NCBI GenBank assembly: GCA_017560145.1
Contig: JAFYON010000047.1
Location: forward strand, 2,906 to 66,905
Length of the DNA: 64,000 nt
Reading direction: 5' to 3'
Source: Clostridia bacterium
GTDB lineage: Bacteria; Bacillota; Clostridia; Oscillospirales; CAG-382
In this document: positions 34,608-43,660 of the stretch, piece by piece
Numbering within the stretch: position 1 is the first letter of the stretch
Layout: each line of letters opens with the position of its first letter
The notes under the pieces: generated by a model
The model's database searches: none
Told to the model about the DNA's origin: nothing
Seen by the model: the letters and a program-made list of their open reading frames with translations, nothing else
Made by a program: the position numbers and the translations under genes

Positions 34608-36011
34608 TTATTTGTTGTAATCGTAGCCTTGTTCGCAGGCGATTTTTGCGCATTCCTTTAATGCATTGGCGGTTTCTTCGTCGAGGCCTGCGGTATAGGT
34701 GATATCTTCAACGTCGATATCCAAATAGGTCATTGCAAGGACGCAGGCGGAAAGATATCCGCCGATATCGGAATGGTGGGAATCGTCGGTGTGATAAAGG
34801 TTTATCTTGGGATATTTTTCGGTACAGATAAGGAATGCATCTGCAACGGGAGCAACCTTTTCGATGCTATAGGTTTCGGCAAGCTTGGTGTAATTGACCT
34901 CGTGTCTATATGCGCTTGCAGGACGCTGTGCGGGGTCGTCATTGGAGGAGTAACGCTTATAGAGAACGACCTCGGCGTCGGTTGCTCTTATCATCGGGAC
35001 GAGCTTTTCCAACGCGGGCTGAGATTCTGCGTAATCGGCGTTTCCGTTATCCTGAAGCACAACGTAATCGTATTTGGTGGCGTTAAGCTTGCTCTTGAAC
35101 AACGCGCCAAGCTGATTGCTTGGGTCGGCATACTGCGAAAGATAAGCACCGCCGCCGCAGCAATATTCAACCTCGATATTGATTCCTGCCGATTGAGCGA
35201 TAAAGAATACCTTGTAGGGGATATTGAAGAAGAAGGTGGTGCTGTTGCCGACGAAAAGGATCTTCTTGTCGACGTTCTGAACGGGATAAGCAAGCTGTCT
35301 TTCGGTCGCGATGCCGTATGCCTCGACCTCGCTTATAAACATCCAACCGCCTGCATTTGCGCAAAAGCGATACTGAACGTAGCGTGCGGTGACCGCCTCT
35401 TCAATAACGAGAGTGCATTCAACGTTCGCCTTCTTTGCATCGTCGATCTGTGTTGTCGCGCCAACGCGATGCCATTCCTCGCCGTCGTTCGAAACAAATA
35501 TCCAAACGATCGAGGGTGCATCGATACCAACGCGAAGGAACTGGCAGGACGCAGTATGCGCAACGAATTTGTCAAGCGCATAATTGCCGCCAAGGTCAAC
35601 TGTTATTGCGGAATAACCGTTTGCGCAGTAATCGGCGCTCGAACGGCTAAAGCCCATAAAAGCTTTATCGGAATAATTCGCTCTTTCTGCGGGAAGTATT
35701 CCGTCGGTCATGCTTATATTGCCCTCGTCGGGATAAGAGGGGTTATCGGCAGGATGAAGATTTGATTTTTTATAGGTCTTGTTCAGTGCTACGTTTGTAT
35801 AAGAGGGGTCTTGCGAAATGTTAACCATAGGGGTCGTGTCCTCCTCGGGCTCTGATGATTCCTCGCTTACGTCGGCAAGCGATTCCTCTTCGCTGATTAC
35901 GGGATTGCTTTGATCGGGTTCGGCTTGATCGTCCTCACAACCGAGAAGTACCAAGGGAAAAAGCGAAAGTACCAACAGCAGTGCAAGTGCGCGCGATAAT
36001 GTTTTTTTCAT
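34608..36011 (-). CDS. Lipoprotein with discoidin (F5/8 type C)-like domain and SGNH-like (DUF4886-type) domain
   Basis: Lipobox LVLLGC. The middle region (LTDG-like MTDGILP, ITVDLGGNYALDKF, FVSNDGEEW, ARYVQYRF, ISEVEAYG) resembles discoidin domains. The C-terminal ILFVGNSTTFF...VVLQDNG resembles an SGNH-like fold. Confidence 0.55.
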   Translation of the reverse strand: MKKTLSRALALLLVLSLFPLVLLGCEDDQAEPDQSNPVISEEESLADVSEESSEPEEDTTPMVNISQDPSYTNVALNKTYKKSNLHPADNPSYPDEGNISMTDGILPAERANYSDKAFMGFSRSSADYCANGYSAITVDLGGNYALDKFVAHTASCQFLRVGIDAPSIVWIFVSNDGEEWHRVGATTQIDDAKKANVECTLVIEEAVTARYVQYRFCANAGGWMFISEVEAYGIATERQLAYPVQNVDKKILFVGNSTTFFFNIPYKVFFIAQSAGINIEVEYCCGGGAYLSQYADPSNQLGALFKSKLNATKYDYVVLQDNGNADYAESQPALEKLVPMIRATDAEVVLYKRYSSNDDPAQRPASAYRHEVNYTKLAETYSIEKVAPVADAFLICTEKYPKINLYHTDDSHHSDIGGYLSACVLAMTYLDIDVEDITYTAGLDEETANALKECAKIACEQGYDYNK

Positions 36012-36185
36012 TTTCTCCTCCGTAATTTTATTACTTATACTATACCATTTCCCCGTGTTTCCGTCAACAAAAAATTTTTCACGCGATCAAACAAGCCGCG
36101 CTCACCGTTTTTTGTTGCACAAGCAACGCGAAACAGATGAATTTAAGGGTATAATATAGTAAAGAAAGCAAGGAGGCAGAAAAAT

Positions 36186-37214
36186 ATGAAATATGCATTT
36201 TTTGACACGAAACCCTATGATAAGCCGTCGTTTGAAAAATACGGAGCCGAGCACGGCATCGAATTTAAGTTTTTCGAAACGAAGCTTAACCGCGACACCG
36301 CCTCTTTGGCAAAGGGATGCGACGGCGTTTGCATTTTCGTCAACGACGTTATAGATAGCGAAACCATCGACAGACTTTATGATATCGGGGTGCGCGCGGT
36401 CGCTTTGCGCTGTGCAGGATACAACAACGTCGACGTCAAGCACGCCTTCGGCAAGCTTCATATTTTCCACGTACCCGCATATTCGCCCTATGCGGTTGCC
36501 GAGCACGCGATAGCAATGCTTTTGACCTCGGTACGCCGTATCCACAAGGCTTATATCCGCACGAAGGATTTCAATTTCTCGCTTAACGGGCTTACCGGCT
36601 TTGATATGCACGGCAAGACGGTTGGCGTGATCGGCACGGGAAGGATTGGCCGCGTTTTTGCCGACATCTGCAAGGGCTTTGGAATGAAGGTGCTTGCTTA
36701 CGATAAATTCCCGTCCGAGGATGAAAATATAAATTACGTTTCGCTTGACGAGCTTTTCGAAAAAAGCGATATTATCTCGCTCCACTGCCCGTTGACCGAC
36801 GAAACCAAGCATCTTATAAACGGCGCCGCTATCGACAGAATGAAAAAGGGCGTTATCGTTATCAACACCTCACGCGGGGCGCTTATCGATACCGAAGCAC
36901 TGCTTGCAGGGATAAAATCGCGCAAGGTCGGCGCGGCTTGTCTTGACGTTTACGAAGAGGAATCGGACATATTCTTTAACGATTTTTCGGGTCATATTAT
37001 GGACGATGACACGCTTGCGCGGCTTATTTCGATGCCGAACGTGCTCGTTACCTCGCACCAAGCCTTTCTGACCGAGGAGGCGCTTAACAACATTGCCGAA
37101 ACGACGGTGAGCAATATTGTTGAATTCGCGGAAAAGGGCTTTTGCGAAAACGAGCTTTGCTACCGTTGCGGAAAAACCGAAAGCTGCAAAAATTCAAGGC
37201 GCAAATGCTTTTAA
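36186..37214 (+). CDS. ldhA: D-isomer-specific 2-hydroxyacid (D-lactate) dehydrogenase
   Basis: 342 aa. NAD motif GVIGTGRIG and the catalytic R/E/H pattern of the LdhA family. Carries an extra Cys-rich C-terminal tail. Confidence 0.85.
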   Translation: MKYAFFDTKPYDKPSFEKYGAEHGIEFKFFETKLNRDTASLAKGCDGVCIFVNDVIDSETIDRLYDIGVRAVALRCAGYNNVDVKHAFGKLHIFHVPAYSPYAVAEHAIAMLLTSVRRIHKAYIRTKDFNFSLNGLTGFDMHGKTVGVIGTGRIGRVFADICKGFGMKVLAYDKFPSEDENINYVSLDELFEKSDIISLHCPLTDETKHLINGAAIDRMKKGVIVINTSRGALIDTEALLAGIKSRKVGAACLDVYEEESDIFFNDFSGHIMDDDTLARLISMPNVLVTSHQAFLTEEALNNIAETTVSNIVEFAEKGFCENELCYRCGKTESCKNSRRKCF

Positions 37215-37276
37215 CTATTGCGTTTGGCTAAACGGTATGTATAATTGTATATAAGATCATCCGAAAGAGGCTTTTT

Positions 37277-37960
37277 ATGTACAAATATTTACTGTGGGAT
37301 ATCGACGGCACCGTTTTGAACTTTCTTGCATCGGAAGCATATGCAATACGCGCGCTGTTTAAAAAATACAACCTCGGCGTTTGCGACGACGAAATGCTTG
37401 CGACCTATTCAAGCATAAACACGAAATATTGGAAAATGCTCGAAAGAAACGAGCTTACGAAGCCCGAAATTTTAATAGGCAGATTCCGTGAATTTTTTGA
37501 GCTTATAGGTGTCGATGTCTCGATTGCGGAAAGCTTTAATCACGATTACCAGCTTGCGCACGGCGACCATATCGAATTTGTTGACAACGCAAAGGAAATG
37601 CTTCTTTCCCAAAAGGGCAAATTCCTTCTTGCCGCGGTGACGAACGGCACAAAGCTCGCGCAAGAAAAAAAGCTTCGCCTTTCGGGGCTGGATAAGATTT
37701 TCGATCATATCTTTATTTCGGAAGACATCGGGTACGAAAAGCCGAATACGGAATTTTTCGACCACGTTTTTGCCTCTCTCGGCATAACCGATAAAAGCGA
37801 AGCTCTTATTATCGGGGATTCGCTCACGGGCGATATTAAGGGTGGCTTTAATTCGGGCATCGACACCTGTTGGTTCAACCCGTCGCATAAACCGAATAAT
37901 CTAGATCTCCCCATCACTTATGATATTTCGGACCTAACCGAACTTGAAAATATTGTATAA
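37277..37960 (+). CDS. HAD-superfamily hydrolase (YjjG-like nucleotidase subfamily)
   Basis: 227 aa. DIDGT motif I, TNG motif II and GDS..DI motif IV. Confidence 0.75.
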   Translation: MYKYLLWDIDGTVLNFLASEAYAIRALFKKYNLGVCDDEMLATYSSINTKYWKMLERNELTKPEILIGRFREFFELIGVDVSIAESFNHDYQLAHGDHIEFVDNAKEMLLSQKGKFLLAAVTNGTKLAQEKKLRLSGLDKIFDHIFISEDIGYEKPNTEFFDHVFASLGITDKSEALIIGDSLTGDIKGGFNSGIDTCWFNPSHKPNNLDLPITYDISDLTELENIV

Positions 37961-37961
37961 C

Positions 37962-38003
37962 AAAAAGAGCACTTTCGAAACAAACGAAAGCGCTCTTTTG
38001 TTT
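37962..38003. terminator. Bidirectional terminator (HAD hydrolase gene / mnmA)
   Basis: AAAAAGAGCACTTTCG-AAACAAA-CGAAAGCGCTCTTTTGTTT. Confidence 0.75.
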
Positions 38004-39048
38004 ATTCTATTATGCCGCCGCCGAGAAGCGTTTCGCCGTCATAAAAGACTGCCGACTGACCGGGTGTTGCCGCACGGACGGGCTCCTTTGTTTCCACAAG
38101 CAATCTGCCCTCTCCGACAGGAACGAGCCTTGCCGAAACAAAGGGCGCGCGGTAGCGTATGCGCACCTGACATTCAAAATCGCCGCTTGGGAAGTCGAGC
38201 GCCGAGAAGGATGCGTTCCTTACCGTAAAGCTTGTTGTAAAAAGATCATCGTTTCTGCCAAGGATAACGGTGTTTTTCTTCATATCCCTGCCGATAACGT
38301 AAAGCGGCTCCTTATAGGCAATACCCAAGCCCTTTCTTTGACCGACGGTATAATGGCTTTGACCCGAATGTCTGCCAAGCACCGTTCCGTCGGCAAGCAC
38401 GAAATCGCCCAAGACGTCCTTGAAATCGGCAACGCGGTTAAGAAATTCGCGGTAATCGCCGTTGGGAATAAAGCAAATGTCCTGACTGTCGCTTTTGTGC
38501 GCAACGGGGATACCGTATTGCTCGGCAAGCTCGCGCACCTCTTTTTTCGAAAATTCGCCGAGCGGAGCGATAAAATTCTTTATTTGATCTTGCGTAAGGC
38601 TCCAAAGCACGTAGCTTTGATCCTTTTCCTCGTCGGCGGCGCGGGTAATAACACGGCGATCGCCGCACTGCTTAACGCGAACGTAATGCCCCGTTGCATA
38701 TTCCTCGGCGCCGTGATCTATTGCATAATCGTAAAGCGCGCCGAATTTTAAATAACGGTTACAAACAACGCAAGGGTTTGGTGTTTCGCCGTTTGCATAA
38801 GCCGAAATGAAATCGCCGACAACGGTTTTTCGGAATTCGTCCTTTAAATCAACGGTATGATGGGGTACGGATAACGAATCGCAAAGCTTTTTCGCATCGT
38901 TCGCCTCGGAGGGCGAGCAATTCGGCACAAGCTCTTCGCCGAAATTGATCATTGTAACGCCTTCGACGTCAAAGCCCTTTTCACGCAGAAGCAAAAGCGC
39001 GGTCGCACTGTCGACACCGCCGCTTACCGCGACAAAGCATTTTTTCAT
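38002..39048 (-). CDS. mnmA: tRNA 2-thiouridine(34) synthase
   Basis: PP-loop AVSGGVDS. Start at 39048 (MKKCFVAVSGG) after GGAGGTG. The track start at 39093 is an extension. Confidence 0.9.
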   Translation of the reverse strand: MKKCFVAVSGGVDSATALLLLREKGFDVEGVTMINFGEELVPNCSPSEANDAKKLCDSLSVPHHTVDLKDEFRKTVVGDFISAYANGETPNPCVVCNRYLKFGALYDYAIDHGAEEYATGHYVRVKQCGDRRVITRAADEEKDQSYVLWSLTQDQIKNFIAPLGEFSKKEVRELAEQYGIPVAHKSDSQDICFIPNGDYREFLNRVADFKDVLGDFVLADGTVLGRHSGQSHYTVGQRKGLGIAYKEPLYVIGRDMKKNTVILGRNDDLFTTSFTVRNASFSALDFPSGDFECQVRIRYRAPFVSARLVPVGEGRLLVETKEPVRAATPGQSAVFYDGETLLGGGIIE

Positions 39049-39177
39049 TCCGACACCTCCAAAAAAATCTTTTTTATATTCTACCACAAGCAAATAAATG
39101 TTGCAACCGATTTTGTCATAATATTCGCCTCTTTCGTGTATTAATTATATAGACACGAATCAAAGGAAGGCTTGATT

Positions 39178-40446
39178 ATGAAAAAAACGATAGCTGTGAT
39201 TTTATCTATTCTAATGACGTTTTTTCTTGTTTCCTGCTCAAGCGGAAACGAAAGCGTTACCGACAACACGCTTAACCGACCGCCCGCTTTTTCGATATTG
39301 GAAAAGCAATTAACGCTTAAAAAGCATAGCGAAAAGGGTGTGACGGCAACCTTTGACAAGGAGGAGTTCAAGGCGCTTATCGGCGAGGATCTTACCTACG
39401 TAAAGGTCGCAACCCTTCCCGAGCATAATCTCGGCACGCTTATTTACAAGGGCGCCGCGGTAATTTTGGGTCAGACCATCCCCGCAGCCTCGCTTGAATA
39501 TCTTAAATTCGTCCCCAACGGCGAAACCGAGCTTGCGGCGTTCGGCTTTTCCTGCGATGCAAAAAGCTTCAACGGAAAAGAGATCAAATGCGAGATATCC
39601 TTTACCGACGGCAAAAATCTTGCACCCGTGGTTTTTGACAGCGATATGAAAACCGTTTCGGGGATCGGATGCGAATCGAAGCTTGAAATCAACGAGCCGA
39701 ACGGCGACAAGTTTAAGGTGAACGTTATCACCTATCCTCGCGACGGTAGGATCGAGATCACAGAGGACGGAAGGATAACCTACGTCCCCAACCCCGACTT
39801 TTCGGGCAAGGATACGCTCGTTTACACGGTCACCGATTGTTTCGGCGCGACCTCCGAGCGCGCAACGCTTTTGATAAACGTCGAGGAAAACGAAAGCAAG
39901 CTGGTGTTTGCAGATATGCAGGACAGTACAGACCATTTGTATGCATATCGCGTTTGCTCTGCCGACGTGATGGTTTACCGCATCACCGACGGAAAATATT
40001 ATTTCGATCCCGAAGCCGCCGTTTCGAAAATTGAATTTTTGGTTATGATGATGAACGCCGCAGGACTCGATGCCGAAATCGCCGCAGTTGCCGACAGTGC
40101 GGTAAGCGACGACACCGCGTTGTCATCGGGACTAAAGGGCTATCTTTCTGCCGCAAACGAGCAAAATCTTATCAAGCTTGACAACGGCGCCTTTTCCCCG
40201 TTTGAAAAGATCACGGTTGCGGATGCCGCTTATATGATAAGCGCGGCGCTTAAGCTGCCCGAGGGCAATTCCGAAAGCGTTAGCACCGGCACGCAGGACC
40301 GCACTCTTTCCGCGATACTTGCGGCAAGCAAGGCAGGCTTTTTTGAATCGCTTTCGCCATCGCACACGCTTACAAAACAGGAAACCGCAAACGCGCTTTG
40401 CAGGATGATAGATTATATAAACGAGAACAATATACCTCTGTCGTAA
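39178..40446 (+). CDS. Surface lipoprotein with Ig/cadherin-like domain and SLH-like C-terminal repeats
   Basis: Lipobox FLVSCSSG after RBS AAGGAAGG. Cadherin-like segment YVPNPDFSGKDTLVYTVTD. C-terminal FADM...YFDPEAAVSKIEFLVMMMNAAGL resembles SLH modules. Confidence 0.55.
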   Translation: MKKTIAVILSILMTFFLVSCSSGNESVTDNTLNRPPAFSILEKQLTLKKHSEKGVTATFDKEEFKALIGEDLTYVKVATLPEHNLGTLIYKGAAVILGQTIPAASLEYLKFVPNGETELAAFGFSCDAKSFNGKEIKCEISFTDGKNLAPVVFDSDMKTVSGIGCESKLEINEPNGDKFKVNVITYPRDGRIEITEDGRITYVPNPDFSGKDTLVYTVTDCFGATSERATLLINVEENESKLVFADMQDSTDHLYAYRVCSADVMVYRITDGKYYFDPEAAVSKIEFLVMMMNAAGLDAEIAAVADSAVSDDTALSSGLKGYLSAANEQNLIKLDNGAFSPFEKITVADAAYMISAALKLPEGNSESVSTGTQDRTLSAILAASKAGFFESLSPSHTLTKQETANALCRMIDYINENNIPLS

Positions 40447-40458
40447 CGGCAGAGGTAT
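40432..40458 (+). repeat. 27-nt hairpin repeat, copy 1 (overlaps last 5 codons and stop of CDS 39178..40446)
   Basis: ATACCTCTGTCGTAACGGCAGAGGTAT. 12-bp stem (one G-U), TAA loop. Identical to 40706-40732. Confidence 0.9.
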
Positions 40459-40515
40459 CAGATCGAAGACAAATGGGACATTTACACCCTTGAAAAAAAA
40501 GAAAACAGCAATACG

Positions 40516-40557
40516 AAAAGATCACTTTCAAAACAAACGGAAGTGATCTTTGATTTT
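40516..40557 (+). terminator. Canonical intrinsic terminator 70 nt downstream of the SLH lipoprotein gene
   Basis: AAAAGATCACTT...AAGTGATCTTTGATTTT. Lies between the two copies of the 27-nt hairpin. Confidence 0.65.
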
Positions 40558-40705
40558 ATTTAAGGAATTAAAAATTCATTGTATTTTCAAGGGTTTTGAA
40601 GAAAAACTCGACTGTCGTAGATTTCTACGCCGACGCTCGCTTTTCTTCAAAACTGCCCTCATTTCTCTTGGTCTGTATCAGTTTGCAGACTTTATCTGCA
40701 AACTG

Positions 40706-40732
40706 ATACCTCTGTCGTAACGGCAGAGGTAT
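40706..40732 (+). repeat. 27-nt hairpin repeat, copy 2 (intergenic)
   Basis: Identical 27-mer in the same orientation. Preceded by a second hairpin TATCAGTTTGCAG...CTGCAAACTGATA (40676-40708). Confidence 0.9.
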
Positions 40733-40771
40733 TAATTTTATGCTCTTCTGCAACAAAAATCGACAAAACGA

Positions 40772-40800
40772 TTGATTTATCCGCAAACCTATGATAAACT
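40772..40800 (+). promoter_or_regulatory. Promoter of zinc-ribbon paralog 1
   Basis: AAAACGATTGATT -35 region, 17-nt spacer, TGATAAACT extended -10. The same architecture occurs at 41302-41330. Confidence 0.55.
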
Positions 40801-40832
40801 GTTAACAGAATATATTTCGGAGGTTTTATAAA

Positions 40833-41276
40833 ATGTTTTGCGAAAAATGCGGCTTTAACAATAACGACGGCGCTTCCTTTTGCCAGAATTGCGGCGCGCC
40901 TATAAACAATGCGCCCAACCAAATTTATCCGCCCTATCAGCCCCCCGTTCAAACCATCAAGCCCAAAATTCCTTCGTTGGGTATGGGCATCACCTCGATG
41001 GTGCTCGGTGCAACCACCTGTGCGTTCCTCTGCTATGCGGTTATCATCTTCCCCTGCGCTATAATCGGTCTTATTCTCGGTTGCATGGCAAATTCCCGTG
41101 CGAAGGCAGTCGGACTTAAAAACGGCTTTGCGACCGCCGGCATCATCACCTCTGTGATTGGTCTTGTAATGGTCGTTTTGTCGTTGATATTCTTTATCTG
41201 GATTTTTGACAGCGTAGATTCGGGCTATTATTACGACTATTATTACTATTATTTTATCAACAGCTTGCCGTTATAA
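40833..41276 (+). CDS. Zinc-ribbon plus DUF4190-type membrane protein (paralog 1)
   Basis: N-terminal CEKCG...CQNCG zinc ribbon, Pro/Gln linker and two TM helices around the conserved GLILGCMANSRAKAVGLKNGFATAGIITS. Poly-Tyr C-terminus. Confidence 0.65.
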   Translation: MFCEKCGFNNNDGASFCQNCGAPINNAPNQIYPPYQPPVQTIKPKIPSLGMGITSMVLGATTCAFLCYAVIIFPCAIIGLILGCMANSRAKAVGLKNGFATAGIITSVIGLVMVVLSLIFFIWIFDSVDSGYYYDYYYYYFINSLPL

Positions 41277-41301
41277 AAGATATTGTTTTTGTAAAAAACG
41301 A

Positions 41302-41330
41302 TTGATTTTAGAAAAAACATGTGATAAACT
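41302..41330 (+). promoter_or_regulatory. Promoter of zinc-ribbon paralog 2
   Basis: AAAACGATTGATT -35 region, 17-nt spacer, TGATAAACT extended -10. Confidence 0.55.
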
Positions 41331-41362
41331 AGTACAAACAAATTTTTAAGGAGATATTCAAT

Positions 41363-41842
41363 ATGTTCTGTCCAAACTGTGGCTCGAATAACGCCGACGG
41401 TGCAGCTTTCTGCGCTAATTGTGGCACCAAGCTCGATAATCAACAACCTCAGCAGGAGGCTCAGCCTCAATATCAGCAACCCCAGTATCAACAACCCCAG
41501 TATCAACAACCCCAGTATCAGCAACCCCAACAGCAGTATCAGGCTCCCTATCAGCCTCCTTACGTTCCCACTGCTCCCGTTGCAGTTCCCGGCAAGGCAC
41601 TTGGCATCGTTGGTATGATCCTCGGTATCATTTCCGTTTCTTTCTTCTGCCTTCTCTACTACTTCACCTTTATTTTCAGCATCCCCGGTCTTATCCTCGG
41701 TTGCATCGGTAACAGCAAGGCAAAGAGCGTTGGCGCAAAGAACGGCATGGCAGTTGCAGGTATCATTACCTCGGCTATCAGCATAGGCTTAAGCGTTATC
41801 TTCATCTTCTTGGTAGTTTTGGGCGTATACGCTGCATATTAA
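41363..41842 (+). CDS. Zinc-ribbon plus DUF4190-type membrane protein (paralog 2)
   Basis: CPNCG...CANCG zinc ribbon, (PQYQQ)x4 linker, then GLILGCIGNSKAKSVGAKNGMAVAGIITS. RBS AAGGAGA. Confidence 0.65.
   Translation: MFCPNCGSNNADGAAFCANCGTKLDNQQPQQEAQPQYQQPQYQQPQYQQPQYQQPQQQYQAPYQPPYVPTAPVAVPGKALGIVGMILGIISVSFFCLLYYFTFIFSIPGLILGCIGNSKAKSVGAKNGMAVAGIITSAISIGLSVIFIFLVVLGVYAAY
41465..41524 (+). repeat. In-frame 15-bp tandem repeat x4 encoding (PQYQQ)4
   Basis: CCTCAATATCAGCAA / CCCCAGTATCAACAA / CCCCAGTATCAACAA / CCCCAGTATCAGCAA. Confidence 0.9.
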
Positions 41843-41851
41843 TTGCAAAAT

Positions 41852-41886
41852 AAAACCTGCGATTCATTCGCAGGTTTTTCTTTTTA
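41852..41886. terminator. Bidirectional terminator (zinc-ribbon paralog 2 / rlmH)
   Basis: AAAACCTGCG-ATTCATT-CGCAGGTTTTTCTTTTT. Confidence 0.8.
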
Positions 41887-42354
41887 TTTATGGTATTTCT
41901 TTCCGCCGTTTATTGAAAACGCGCGATAAACCTGTTCGGCGAGCATAACCCGTGCAAGCATGTGAGGAAAGGTCATTTTCGACATCGACAAGCGAAGATC
42001 GCATTCGCGCTTTAACGCTTCGTCAAGCCCAAAGGACGAGCCGATTATAAAGCATATCGGGCGCGTTTCGTTTGAAAAGACGTATGCCAGCTCGACGCTC
42101 GAAAGCTGCTTACCCTCGATACACATTGCGATTTTCAGCGCGTTTTTCGGTATTGCCGATCGGATCCCGTTCGCTTCCTTTTCGAGCGCGCGCAGAATAA
42201 GCTTTTCGGAATCCTCGCCAAAGCAGGATTCCTCTTTTATGCAAACCGTCTTGTAATCGCAAAACGCCTTCAATCGCTTGATATATTCATTTTCGGCATC
42301 CTTGAAATATTTTTCTTTAAAATCACCAACGTGAATTATTGTTACAGAGTTCAT
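41884..42354 (-). CDS. rlmH: 23S rRNA (pseudouridine1915-N3)-methyltransferase
   Basis: 156 aa SPOUT protein of RlmH length and pattern (GK..K..Y......EY.KRL, C-terminal HxLxRxxLxEQxYRA). Confidence 0.9.
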   Translation of the reverse strand: MNSVTIIHVGDFKEKYFKDAENEYIKRLKAFCDYKTVCIKEESCFGEDSEKLILRALEKEANGIRSAIPKNALKIAMCIEGKQLSSVELAYVFSNETRPICFIIGSSFGLDEALKRECDLRLSMSKMTFPHMLARVMLAEQVYRAFSINGGKKYHK

Positions 42355-42359
42355 AATTG

Positions 42360-42950
42360 TTATTTCTTTCTTTTTCTTGCGTTAACGGTTTTCTTTTTTC
42401 TTACCGAAAATCCGAAATCTCCGATCTTTTTGCCGAGGGTAAAATAATCGCCGTGCGAATAAGCAAGAAGGTCTGCACGCTCGAGCATCAGTTTTCCCTT
42501 TTCGTCGATTATCGATTCATCGACCGAAACGGCAACGATATCGGCAATAAACATATCGTGCGAGCCGAGCGGAACAATTCTGTCGACCTTGCATTCAAGC
42601 GTAAGCGGACATTCGGCAACGCTTTTGCAGGAAACCGCAAAGGAGTCTGATTTGGTAAGCTTGGTTTCCTTGAATTTGTCGATATCCTTGCCCGATCTTA
42701 CTCCGCAGAAATCCACCGCGCGCACCATTTGGGCGGTGGGAAGATTAACGCAAAATTCGCCGCTTTCCTTAATCAGATTATATGAAAAGCGCTCGGGTCT
42801 GACGGAAATATAAAGCTTTGGCGGTTGGGTGCAAACAATACCCGTCCAACCGATAGTTATTAAATTGTCCTTTTCGCCGTTCGAGCTTGAAACAAGCACC
42901 GACGGCACGGGCGCCAAAAGCGCGCCGCCCTTCCATTGCTGTTTAGACAT
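42360..42950 (-). CDS. Flavin reductase-like FMN-binding protein
   Basis: 196 aa. Split-barrel flavin reductase pattern (NLITIGWTG, ISVRP.R.SY.LI...GEF.VNL). Confidence 0.8.
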   Translation of the reverse strand: MSKQQWKGGALLAPVPSVLVSSSNGEKDNLITIGWTGIVCTQPPKLYISVRPERFSYNLIKESGEFCVNLPTAQMVRAVDFCGVRSGKDIDKFKETKLTKSDSFAVSCKSVAECPLTLECKVDRIVPLGSHDMFIADIVAVSVDESIIDEKGKLMLERADLLAYSHGDYFTLGKKIGDFGFSVRKKKTVNARKRKK

Positions 42951-42955
42951 AAGTT

Positions 42956-43660
42956 TTACCTATACAATAAAGAATAACATATCTCGTAAGCCATACGCAA
43001 GCCTGCCGTTGCGGGCACGAAAACGGCGCTTGAGGGGGTAGCCCTGCCGGTAATTTCGTTTCTGCCCTCGCAGCACTTACCCGGCTCTTCAAGTGAGCAA
43101 ACTACCTTTAAAGCTTCAACGCCCCTTGCTCTAAGCTCCTTGCGCATAATACGCGCCAAAGGATCGCCCGAGGTTTTGAAGATATCGGTTACAGTTATTT
43201 GCGACGGGTCAAGACGGTTTCCCGTGCCCATCGAGGAAATTATCGGAACCTTTAATTCATTCGCCGATGTAATAAGCAAAAGCTTGCTCGTTACGGTATC
43301 GATACAATCTGCGATATAATCGTATTGCAAAAGATCTATCTCGCCCTTCGTTTCGGCGGAATAAAACAAATTCACGCTTGTCACTTCGCAATCGGGGTTG
43401 ATATCCTTAAGCCTTTCGGCGCACACCCTTGCCTTTTCCATTCCCTCGGTAGAGGTAAGTGCGATTATTTGGCGGTTTTTGTTGGTTTCGGAAACAACGT
43501 CGCCGTCAACCACGGTAATTCTTCCGATACCGCATCTTACCAATGCCTCGGCACACCAAGAGCCGACACCGCCAACACCGAAAACGATAATGCTTGAATT
43601 ATTCAGTTTTTTAACGCCGTCCTCGCCAATAAGCGGAAGCGACCTTTCAAGCAAGCTCAT
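42956..43660 (-). CDS. tcdA: tRNA threonylcarbamoyladenosine dehydratase (ThiF/E1-like)
   Basis: 234 aa. Rossmann motif VFGVGGVGSW and TcdA-like length. Confidence 0.8.
   Translation of the reverse strand: MSLLERSLPLIGEDGVKKLNNSSIIVFGVGGVGSWCAEALVRCGIGRITVVDGDVVSETNKNRQIIALTSTEGMEKARVCAERLKDINPDCEVTSVNLFYSAETKGEIDLLQYDYIADCIDTVTSKLLLITSANELKVPIISSMGTGNRLDPSQITVTDIFKTSGDPLARIMRKELRARGVEALKVVCSLEEPGKCCEGRNEITGRATPSSAVFVPATAGLRMAYEICYSLLYR

Follow-up and report, generated by a model that had tools for sequence, protein, structure and literature searches.

The lipoprotein gene and its terminator hairpin

The window analyzed here, a 64-kb stretch of a Clostridia bacterium MAG, carries on its plus strand a lipoprotein gene (39178-40446 in the ORF list) whose product, NCBI MBR5285771.1, has Big_9/cadherin-like domains (Pfam Big_9/Cadherin_5). 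An exact-match search of the window showed that the sequence ATACCTCTGTCGTAACGGCAGAGGTAT occurs in exactly two copies, both on the plus strand, at 40432-40458 and 40706-40732; no copy was expected by chance (100 shuffles). Because the neighboring bases differ, copy 1 standing between AAT and CAG and copy 2 between CTG and TAA, the repeat is exactly 27 nt long, as an earlier note on this DNA had reported. The same note correctly placed the end of the gene in copy 1, which contains its last four codons and the stop (I-P-L-S-stop, IPLS*; the ORF ends at 40446), and copy 2 at 100 nt upstream of the next ATG, at 40833.

Both copies form a 12-bp stem closed by a TAA loop (computed energy -17.1 kcal/mol for each), and in copy 1 the stop codon lies in this loop. 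The stem includes one T-G wobble, and the 27-mer differs from its reverse complement at three positions. Thus, the duplication is perfect, but the stem falls short of a perfect Watson-Crick palindrome. The statement of the earlier note that copy 2 lacks a U-tract did not hold: the T-rich tract TAATTTTAT (40733-40741) is found directly 3' of copy 2, and the segment 40704-40734 scored as terminator-like in a terminator scan.

Orthologous sites with a single hairpin were present in relatives (L001/L012, L013, L014, and L015). All of them have one identical 27-mer with the T-tract immediately after it, and read TAAATTTTTAC. L001/L012 and L013 belong to the RGIG7669 lineage, and L014 to the lineage of the window, with 96% identity. 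At L007/L008, a variant hairpin with a TGA loop follows the gene, and at L009 the gene ends in ATG TAA and is followed by a homologous hairpin and a T-tract. Given these variant and homologous hairpins, the hairpin is, as judged from the sequence comparison, vertically inherited host DNA and the native intrinsic terminator of the lipoprotein gene, contrary to the earlier view that the two hairpins are not simply the terminators of the gene. In the window, the left copy is the complete native terminator hairpin parted from its T-tract, and the right copy has kept the T-tract. Among 96 lipoprotein homologs, the closest clade has a C-terminus of the type ..NNIPLS, and the more distant ones end in ..NNM. 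The 27-mer was found at this orthologous site only among the representative genomes of 185,579 species.

The 247-bp insert and its family

Alignments of the window to the empty site L001 break off at 40458 and restart at 40706. The DNA between these borders (40459-40705, plus strand) is 247 bp long and is missing from the empty alleles; we read it as a non-coding, non-autonomous transposable element (MITE), with family copies at L011 and L016-L020. The earlier note had rightly described the interval as a structured non-coding cassette and suspected that something mobile was involved. The presence of the insert is polymorphic within two lineages: the window, L002, L003, and L006 are occupied, and L014, L001, and L013 are empty. 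The element copies of the window and L006 share 98.0% identity, and their flanks 86-89%. To the right of the insertion, L006 is of its own lineage type at every informative site, starting at +1; to the left it is mostly of its own type, but three of the last four informative sites are of the window type. Transfer of the element into L006 on a recombination tract from the window lineage was rejected because of the right-flank sites, the left end being ambiguous. Mosaic alleles show homologous recombination between the two lineages, so the insertions in the window and L006 could be a single event that spread rather than independent hits.

The family consists of non-coding elements of about 240 bp with imperfect 15-nt terminal inverted repeats (TIRs), 5'-CAGNNNGNAGACAAA. 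The homology of all members begins exactly at CAG with the left TIR (40459-40473, plus strand), which reads CAGATCGAAGACAAA in the window and 5'-CAGACCGAAGACAAA in the family consensus. It matches the right end read inwards, CAGTTTGCAGA(T/C)AAA, at 11 of 15 positions, and the two consensus ends also agree at 11 of 15 (the right one being CAGTTTGCAGACAAA). These repeats are the most conserved segments of the element. The right TIR (40691-40705) is the outer arm of a 27-nt terminal hairpin, H2 (40679-40705, plus strand; helix 9), which has a 12-bp stem, a 3-nt loop, and two inverted TIR-like 12-mers, and whose geometry equals that of the target hairpins in a fold comparison. H2 is nearly invariant in the family, and 10 of the 12 pairs of helix 9 never vary. 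It is the conserved core of the inverted repeat that abuts copy 2, which the earlier note had seen; the arms of that inverted repeat are 15 nt (40675-40709), not 13 bp. A further inverted TIR-like copy lies inside the element on the minus strand (40661-40675) and pairs with the left end as helix 1 (14 pairs, 96.4% paired). No second copy of the element ends was found in the 64-kb window.

The insert is strongly folded (z-score -16), and the family alignment showed that the fold is conserved, with nine helices and 23 pairs with compensatory changes; shuffled alignments gave 13.2 +/- 1.9 such pairs, none of 500 reaching 23, and slid controls gave 1-4. Helix 3 (ACCCTTGAAAA at 40486-40496 with TTTTCAAGGGT at 40584-40594; 98.9% of cells paired in eight copies) encloses a Rho-independent terminator (40517-40560, plus strand), which was recovered by inverted-repeat search and fold. 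In this terminator, helix 4 (40517-40529 with 40539-40551) is followed by TTTGATTTTATTT. Across the family it has three unrelated stem sequences, always with a hairpin and T-tract, and compensatory changes affect 7 of the 13 pairs of helix 4. An A/T-armed hairpin (40595-40651, plus strand; helix 6) with the nested helix 8 (40616-40629) was likewise found by inverted-repeat search and covariation, with compensatory changes in 6 of 12 and 3 of 5 pairs, respectively. The earlier note had described a terminator here and an A/T-armed hairpin at 40593-40653, and both are present, the terminator at 40517-40551 plus T-tract. The counts of G-U and A-C cells in the pair table favor neither strand, as expected for DNA palindromes. 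No Rfam covariance model matched within 40432-40732 at E <= 1. The reading frames of the element are not conserved: indels shift them between copies, which are 238-247 bp long.

The HAD hydrolase and mnmA genes are separated by a native bidirectional terminator (37959-38006, no strand assigned) that is about 80% identical to the internal terminator of the element (39 of 49 positions; nhmmer E = 2.7e-5; also matched by blastn), with a local score of 50 against 31 for the next-best match anywhere in the window. Its relation to the element is uncertain, and it may be unconnected with it.

Six further loci with the element were recovered in other genomes (L011, L016-L020), and the neighboring genes differ at each of them. 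In addition, an exhaustive HMMER search with a single-frame ORF query of a library of 1.84 billion proteins revealed 17 spurious short ORFs, all cluster representatives with unrelated flanks, that translate other copies of the element. At L011, the homology starts exactly at CAG and ends exactly at CTG. At four loci the element lies between direct copies of a hairpin: AGAGCTATTGATGAAAAGTCAATAGCTCT at L016 (29 nt), AAAAGAGTTGCGTGGGCAACTCTTTT at L017 (26 nt), AGACTGCCCGAGTGTATTTCGGGCAGTCT at L018 (29 nt, one mismatch), and AAAGGTGCTTCGATCACGAAGCACCTTT at L019 (28 nt). The duplicated hairpins of the window and L016-L019 are five unrelated sequences, each a complete dyad-centered hairpin paired end to end, with stems of 11-12 bp and energies of -14 to -21 kcal/mol. 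Matched empty sites come only from the window locus; at L016-L019 the duplication is deduced from the direct repeat alone. An A-tract remains on the left at L016-L019. A T-rich tract follows the right-hand copy in the window, L016, and L018; at L017 and L019 most of the T-run is inside the duplicated unit, and the sequence after it is weak.

The whole stem-loop is therefore duplicated at five of the seven loci. The other two, L011 and L020, have a different hairpin at each end and no duplication, a pattern consistent with recombination between element copies; this gives four more hairpins abutting element ends, and those of L020 measure no more than 22 nt, the junction lying precisely at the foot. 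The target context common to the copies is limited to T/CAG...CTG/A, with no conserved tetra- or pentanucleotide. GTAT/CAG was rejected as an end motif, as the three bases before CAG vary with the target (TAT, TCT, TTT).

Several searches were done for a transposase partner and for further copies. No partner of the element was found in the 64-kb window or in plasmid, phage, and viral collections. Exact patterns (the 27-mer, both ends, two conserved core blocks, and degenerate H2 and left-end patterns) had no match in viral contigs, and blastn of plasmids and phages with the whole region and the consensus ends gave nothing meaningful. A metagenome scan with the left 21-mer of the window, which has two lineage-specific bases, gave no match. 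A second scan, using the H2 arms, retrieved L011 as a true copy and L010 as a chance match. The JGI contig L017 was absent from its results, which shows that this collection under-reports the family. A protein search with the gene adjoining the L011 copy, made for an empty site, had no matches, and neither did the concatenated six-frame "protein" of the element core.

Explanations for the duplicated hairpin

The insert has the features of a MITE: it is small and non-coding, it has TIRs, its flanking target-site duplication is single in the empty site, and it shows dispersed copies and insertion polymorphism. The duplication itself is atypical for a MITE, being a hairpin of 26-29 nt. We consider it likely that the twin 27-mer is a target-site duplication produced when a MITE inserted into the terminator hairpin and the entire stem-loop was copied; this is the best explanation of the data as a whole. 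The earlier note had proposed that a 27-mer unique to the locus and carried by no IS ends would speak against a mobile element. Both are the case here, and the locus nevertheless reads as a transposon insertion; the proposed reasoning breaks down once the 27-mer is taken as a target-site duplication.

The rival that comes nearest accepts the same MITE insertion and attributes the length of the duplication to a fixed stagger of about 27 bp, as in the IS1202 subgroup; a preference for terminators would then be secondary, reflecting dyad-symmetric or A/T-flanked DNA, and the hairpin would not set the cuts. This subgroup occurs in Firmicutes including Clostridia, and its target duplications are 27-28 bp, with 26 and 29 also listed; no target is reported for it, and terminators and MITEs are not mentioned (bioRxiv 10.1101/2022.12.17.520857; PMC10132070). 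Our verified duplications (26, 27, 28, 29, and 29 nt) have the range of the 26-29 bp direct repeats in its Supplementary Table 1, and would fit a fixed spacing centered on the dyad. Moreover, at L016 and L017 the cut does not coincide with the end of the longest A:T-extended stem that could form: L017 takes in four A:T pairs to reach 26 nt, and L016 includes only one of about five and stops at 29 nt. However, all five duplications are exactly dyad-centered complete hairpins, and the L020 hairpins, at just 22 nt, still have the junction at the foot. The idea that the long duplications of the subgroup are also hairpins was discarded, since its published direct repeats are non-palindromic (for example, TCACTTTTGAGATTTTTTCTCTAAAATA). 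Its inverted repeats start with TGT or TAT (T-a/g-T) and have an internal AATGTCC motif, whereas the element starts with 5'-CAG, at most TCAG, and lacks AATGTCC. We regard this explanation as unlikely.

The remaining alternatives are weaker. A conserved structured RNA or regulatory cassette, such as a 3'-UTR or terminator module spread by homologous recombination, with the repeat arising from slippage or template switching, would agree with the strong covariation-supported fold, the internal terminator, and the mosaic alleles at the locus. It is very improbable given the element at six other unrelated loci with different neighbor genes, the sharp homology borders with inverted-repeat ends, the locus-specific duplication each time, and the G-U and A-C counts that favor no strand. 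The local duplication of the gene 3' end considered in the earlier note is literally true of the 27-mer; its cause is 247 bp of foreign DNA absent in relatives, not slippage. The same note had suggested leftover attachment sites. These would be attL and attR of a Campbell-type integrase event that brought in a small circle or a larger island since degraded, and the 27-mer would be their common core. The single copy in the empty site and the inclusion of a gene 3' end, as with many integrases, would suit this reading; against it, a shared core would be constant, and the duplicated sequences that flank other copies are unrelated. The element proper contains no 27-mer-like sequence, the 27-mer has no other occurrence in the representative genomes, and the ten ORFs scanned on both sides (34608-43660) are housekeeping or ordinary genes with no integrase, which makes attachment sites hardly tenable. 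Just as implausible is the other architecture suggested there, a non-autonomous IS200/IS605-type element transposing by a hairpin-guided, single-strand route, with the 27-mers as its own subterminal hairpins. Hairpins in the same orientation at both ends, and H2 as a terminal hairpin, recall such elements. Yet the flanking hairpins derive from the target, as orthologous empty sites keep one, and differ at each locus; no fixed target word of 4-5 nt exists beyond the context given above; and IS200/IS605 elements have neither duplications nor terminal inverted repeats, both of which are present here. Xer/dif sites were rejected on sequence and position, and integron attC sites and a CRISPR-like array because their supporting features are absent.

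Since no transposase partner was found, we infer the chemistry of the MITE insertion into the hairpin. A transposase acting in trans would bind the left TIR and, within H2, the right TIR. The target would be chosen by the shape of the stem-loop and not by its sequence, probably as an extruded cruciform or an otherwise dyad-symmetric terminator. Each of the two 3' ends of the element would be joined to one strand at the 5' foot of the hairpin; the two joining positions are 26-29 nt apart in linear DNA and adjacent at the base of a cruciform. Repair of the two single-stranded gaps would then copy the whole hairpin. We propose, tentatively and with considerable doubt, that this is an undescribed mode of DNA transposition, in which an integrase reads the extruded terminator cruciform and joins the ends at both feet, so that a whole hairpin of any sequence is duplicated. 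H2 would mimic the target, and the internal terminator would be a replaceable module that may have been picked up from host terminators, 37959-38006 being an example. The enzyme would represent a new branch within the IS1182 group, its outcome opposite to that of IS1272, or belong to an uncatalogued family.

The duplication in the window would be one defined by structure: what is copied is a complete functional terminator, not a few arbitrary bases. The insertion strips one hairpin of its T-tract, adds a second terminator inside the element, and restores the original one downstream. The internal terminator would stop the transcripts of the upstream gene; as the left hairpin loses its T-tract and the element has its own terminator, the insertion may be tolerated. 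Gene 3' ends would thus be rewired with termination intact, which may explain the tolerance next to housekeeping genes. There is also a pitfall for annotation: because the duplication is palindromic, repeat finders take it for a long terminal inverted repeat and set wrong element boundaries. "Duplicated terminators" elsewhere may be unrecognized insertions. A transposase that recognizes hairpins independently of their sequence could be a useful tool and a probe for cruciform extrusion in vivo.

Comparison with known systems

The element shares single features with several known systems. Known MITEs, to our knowledge, duplicate 2-10 bp of their targets, and these bases are unstructured. In other respects, the element resembles bacterial MITEs such as Correia/NEMIS, RUP, ERIC, Chunjie, and bcr1, which are non-coding, of about 100-400 bp, strongly folded, intergenic, and strain-variable, with TIRs and flanking target-site duplications; the sections of the MITE review drawn on here describe no hairpin-sized target duplication (PMC10969869).

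Other mobile elements home to palindromes. These IS and introns integrate either within the loop or on the 3' side of the hairpin and duplicate 0-4 bp, and none in this group is known to us to copy the hairpin itself. Group II introns, ribozymes of at least 0.6 kb, lack inverted-repeat ends; a group IIC intron was rejected here because the element is too small and has such ends. An extragenic palindrome or terminator as target is what the element has in common with IS1397/ISKpn1 (REP loops), IS110/IS1111 (REP or attC), and group IIC introns (after terminators) (PMC1525189, in part).

A looser likeness concerns integration by Cas1. The units that Cas1 duplicates are the CRISPR repeat, of roughly 28-37 bp and often partly palindromic, and about 14-15 bp in casposons. 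By analogy, two attacks on opposite strands at the borders of a unit, as in CRISPR spacer and casposon integration, would duplicate it around the insert (PMC5137440, in part); unlike those systems, the element has no cas1, array, or leader, and the insert is a defined element with inverted-repeat ends.

The nearest known behavior is that of IS1272 (IS1182 family), which inserts at terminator hairpins of 21-85 bp whatever their sequence. The same hairpin may be hit repeatedly, and IS1272L has extra tandem inverted-repeat copies at one end (PMC5678879; PMC4923244). IS1272 and TnSha1 of staphylococci are, like the element, found in Firmicutes, have inverted repeats of about 16 bp, and insert at terminator or inverted-repeat stem-loops selected by structure, usually just downstream of genes. 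Targeting by structure and not by sequence is likewise seen here in the five duplicated hairpins and the four abutting ones of L011 and L020. The element differs in being 240 bp, non-coding, and devoid of a transposase, and the likeness described here is one of targeting behavior. The outcome also differs: on insertion of IS1272 the stem-loop is lost, either entirely ("stem-loop replacing", PMC5678879) or partly (PMC4923244), with no duplication, whereas the element duplicates the whole stem-loop. This duplication corresponds to "pathway b" of the model of Wan et al. for IS1272, and would be natural evidence for an outcome which that model predicted and which had not been observed.

The duplicated hairpin and its empty sites

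Two exact copies of the 27-mer ATACCTCTGTCGTAACGGCAGAGGTAT, and no more, lie in the 64-kb window, one at 40432-40458 and the other at 40706-40732. Each is on the + strand, and chance would be expected to give none. The bases beside the two copies differ on both sides, so the direct repeat is exactly 27 nt, as the earlier note had stated. Its description of the copies also held: in both, a TAA loop caps a stem of 12 bp (which includes one T-G wobble), copy 1 encodes the IPLS-stop of an ORF ending at 40446, and copy 2 lies 100 nt upstream of the first zinc-ribbon gene. The product of the ORF is lipoprotein-like, with Big_9/cadherin-like domains. The claim that neither copy has a U-tract was wrong for copy 2, which is followed by a T-rich tract and was terminator-like in a terminator scan. 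The hairpin-to-hairpin interval folds well beyond shuffled sequence (z-score -16 as RNA, -11.7 as DNA), and Rfam returned nothing within it.

In a scan of one representative per species (185,579 species), the only match to the 27-mer was in a Clostridia MAG (RGIG7669) from water-buffalo rectum. This orthologous locus (L001), 86-88% identical to the window, has one hairpin copy, with TAAATTTTTAC and the zinc-ribbon gene immediately after it. Its two alignments with the window stop at 40458 and resume at 40706, with the hairpin common to both. Further orthologous loci, retrieved through the protein, formed a graded series. L007 and L008 (lipoprotein 82% identical) lack the insert and have a variant of the hairpin, with TGA as its loop; in L009 (78% identical) the gene ends in ATG TAA, followed by a homologous hairpin and a T-tract. 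The single hairpin in L001 and the homologous ones in L007, L008 and L009 show that the stem-loop is the lipoprotein gene's own intrinsic terminator, that is, host DNA. On the same sequence comparison, the 247 bp between the copies (40459-40705) are an insertion; matched empty sites were compared at the window locus only.

The lipoprotein of the closest clade (window 40432-40446) terminates in ..NNIPLS, with the stop in its own terminator loop, and more distant orthologs terminate in ..NNM (ATG TAA), with a homologous hairpin just after (L009 3590-3640). These two ends indicate that the reading frame was extended into the terminator stem, the stop codon having shifted into the loop.

Misled by the palindromic target duplication, repeat finders called a 42-nt "terminal inverted repeat" (40432-40473 versus 40691-40732), most of which is target DNA. 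For such elements, boundaries would come out wrong in automated MITE tools.

Several other features were noted around the locus. The second zinc-ribbon/DUF4190 gene contains 15-nt tandem repeats (41462-41536), and its product has 154, 159 or 160 aa among strains. Sub-threshold Rfam hits at 41811-41898, to the Leu and Thr leaders and to ohsC, coincide with a strong bidirectional terminator at 41852-41878 that separates convergent genes, and look like terminator look-alikes rather than leaders. Two short metagenome contigs from related strains, L004 (from window 40750) and L005 (from 40803), start 18 and 71 nt to the right of copy 2, and a 2.9-kb contig has a chimeric 464-aa lipoprotein version (P0011) with an unrelated N-terminus; these contig starts and the chimera are probably assembly artefacts.

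A dispersed family with a common fold

A degenerate scan of metagenome DNA for H2, the terminal hairpin of the element (40679-40705), found a copy (L011) in a context unrelated to that of the window; the homology between the two runs exactly from CAG to CTG. The longest ORF crossing the element (40547-40705) was translated and compared with 1.84 billion protein representatives. The 17 short "proteins" that matched have ..IFKGFHEKLDYLTIVSLRSFFVKNNFVSLSLFQFADFVCKL in common and unrelated tails, and therefore appear to be spurious ORFs called across other element copies. Five were traced to DNA (L016-L020). Since the metagenome DNA scan had missed L017, a JGI contig in which H2 is exact, it clearly under-samples the family.

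In L016-L019 the element is flanked on both sides by a directly duplicated sequence, which differs from locus to locus and is each time a complete stem-loop. The duplicated unit is ATACCTCTGTCGTAACGGCAGAGGTAT (27 nt) in the window and in L006, an occupied orthologous locus, AGAGCTATTGATGAAAAGTCAATAGCTCT (29 nt) in L016, AAAAGAGTTGCGTGGGCAACTCTTTT (26 nt) in L017, AGACTGCCCGAGTGTATTTCGGGCAGTCT (29 nt, one mismatch) in L018 and AAAGGTGCTTCGATCACGAAGCACCTTT (28 nt) in L019. All units are paired from first base to last, with stems of 11-12 bp. An upstream A-run remains left of the element in L016-L019. The right-hand hairpin copy is followed by a T-rich tract in the window, L016 and L018; in L017 and L019 the T-run is mostly inside the duplicated unit, with a weak T-tract beyond. 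The empty sites and these locus-specific repeats contradict the three origins proposed in the earlier note, namely an IS200/IS605-type element, att sites and a plain local duplication.

In L011 (hairpins 43-72 and 311-336) and L020 (538-559 and 800-821), the element ends abut the feet of two different hairpins and no flanking duplication was found. Recombination between copies, described as the origin of insertion sequences without flanking repeats (Siguier et al.), would fit these mismatched hairpins. The L011 element lies between the terminators of convergent genes.

The anatomy of the element was taken from alignment A2, with pairing counted on eight copies. The left inverted repeat, CAGACCGAAGACAAA, pairs with an internal inverted copy to form helix 1. 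Enclosed by helix 3 is an internal Rho-independent terminator (helix 4), whose stem is wholly different in sequence in three subfamilies, with the hairpin and T-tract always kept. Next come an A/T-armed hairpin and, nested in it, a further hairpin (helices 6 and 8). The right end is H2, CAGTTTGCAGAC-TTT-GTCTGCAAACTG, a hairpin of 27 nt with almost no variation; its outer arm forms the right inverted repeat. Among the eight copies, 96.3% of cells were paired, and 23 pairs had compensatory changes, compared with 13.2 +/- 1.9 in shuffles (0/500 reached 23) and 1-4 with slid partners. G-U and A-C cells were about equally frequent in a tally from the pair table, so the fold fits DNA palindromes as well as it fits RNA. 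Reading-frame conservation was not seen among element copies.

In all family copies H2 has a 12-bp stem and 27 nt, the geometry of the targeted hairpins; it is built from a TIR-like 12-mer present in two inverted copies and resembles an abutted IR-IR junction. The internal terminator (40512-40560) is identical at 39/49 positions (about 80%), loop included, to the native bidirectional terminator between the HAD hydrolase gene and mnmA (37959-38006), by far its best match in the window (score 50 versus 31; nhmmer E = 2.7e-5). In the L006 locus as retrieved, no such match was found, and an extra gene lies between those two genes. The likeness could be due to capture of a host terminator, to an old copy that left a remnant, or to chance.

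Occupancy and recombination between lineages

Occupancy varied within both lineages. In that of the window, the element is present in the window, L002 and L003, whose mutual identity is 99.6-99.8%, and L014, with a left flank 96% identical to the window, is empty. In the sister lineage L006 is occupied, and L001/L012 and L013, 97-98% identical to it, are empty. The elements of the window and L006 differ at 5/247 positions and their flanks by 11-14%. To the right of the insertion, L006 matches its own lineage at all informative sites, from +1; to the left it mostly does, but three of the four informative sites nearest the junction are of window type. Some alleles of the lipoprotein gene (39178-40446 in window coordinates; P0102, P0108, P0110; L015) are mosaics of window-type and RGIG7669-type segments, which shows that homologous recombination takes place between lineages about 12% divergent at the locus. 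Because the lineages recombine, the window and L006 may reflect either two independent insertions or one common event. Whichever the history, the element is gained or lost precisely at the hairpin.

Target choice and related systems

The element inserts with duplication of the whole hairpin, at targets without sequence similarity, and has inverted-repeat ends. A transposase acting in trans would join the element, through its two 3' ends, to the 5' feet of the stem-loop, one per strand. In a cruciform these sites would lie side by side at the base, and repair of the gaps would then copy the hairpin. This joining and gap-repair route is "pathway b" of the IS1272 model (Wan et al., PMC5678879). 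The internal terminator plausibly compensates for the T-tract lost by the left hairpin copy. In 6/7 loci a gene on the same strand as the element ends just upstream of the left hairpin, a pattern that is suggestive only.

A stagger fixed at about 27 bp, such as that of the IS1202 subgroup, would explain the narrow duplication range of 26-29 nt. However, the duplications of that subgroup are non-palindromic in the published table, and its ends start with TGT or TAT and carry an AATGTCC block. For these reasons we prefer a structure-guided choice of target, with a dyad-centred ruler as its rival.

MITEs, hairpin-seeking insertion sequences and very long target duplications are each already known. 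In the literature searched, we found no description of a MITE with a complete terminator hairpin as its target duplication: full-text searches on the hairpin-duplication theme gave nothing pertinent, the passages of a 2024 MITE review on terminators, palindromes and target duplications held nothing of that kind, and neither of two IS1202 papers reported the target of the long-duplication group. According to Siguier et al., as cited by Furi et al. and Wan et al. (PMC5678879) with no detail, some IS1182 members target palindromes, so related cases may be known to specialists. With a structure-guided target, the element resembles IS1272 and TnSha1 (IS1182 family), which also choose terminator hairpins by structure; in contrast, these delete the stem-loop and make no duplication, whereas the element duplicates the whole hairpin.
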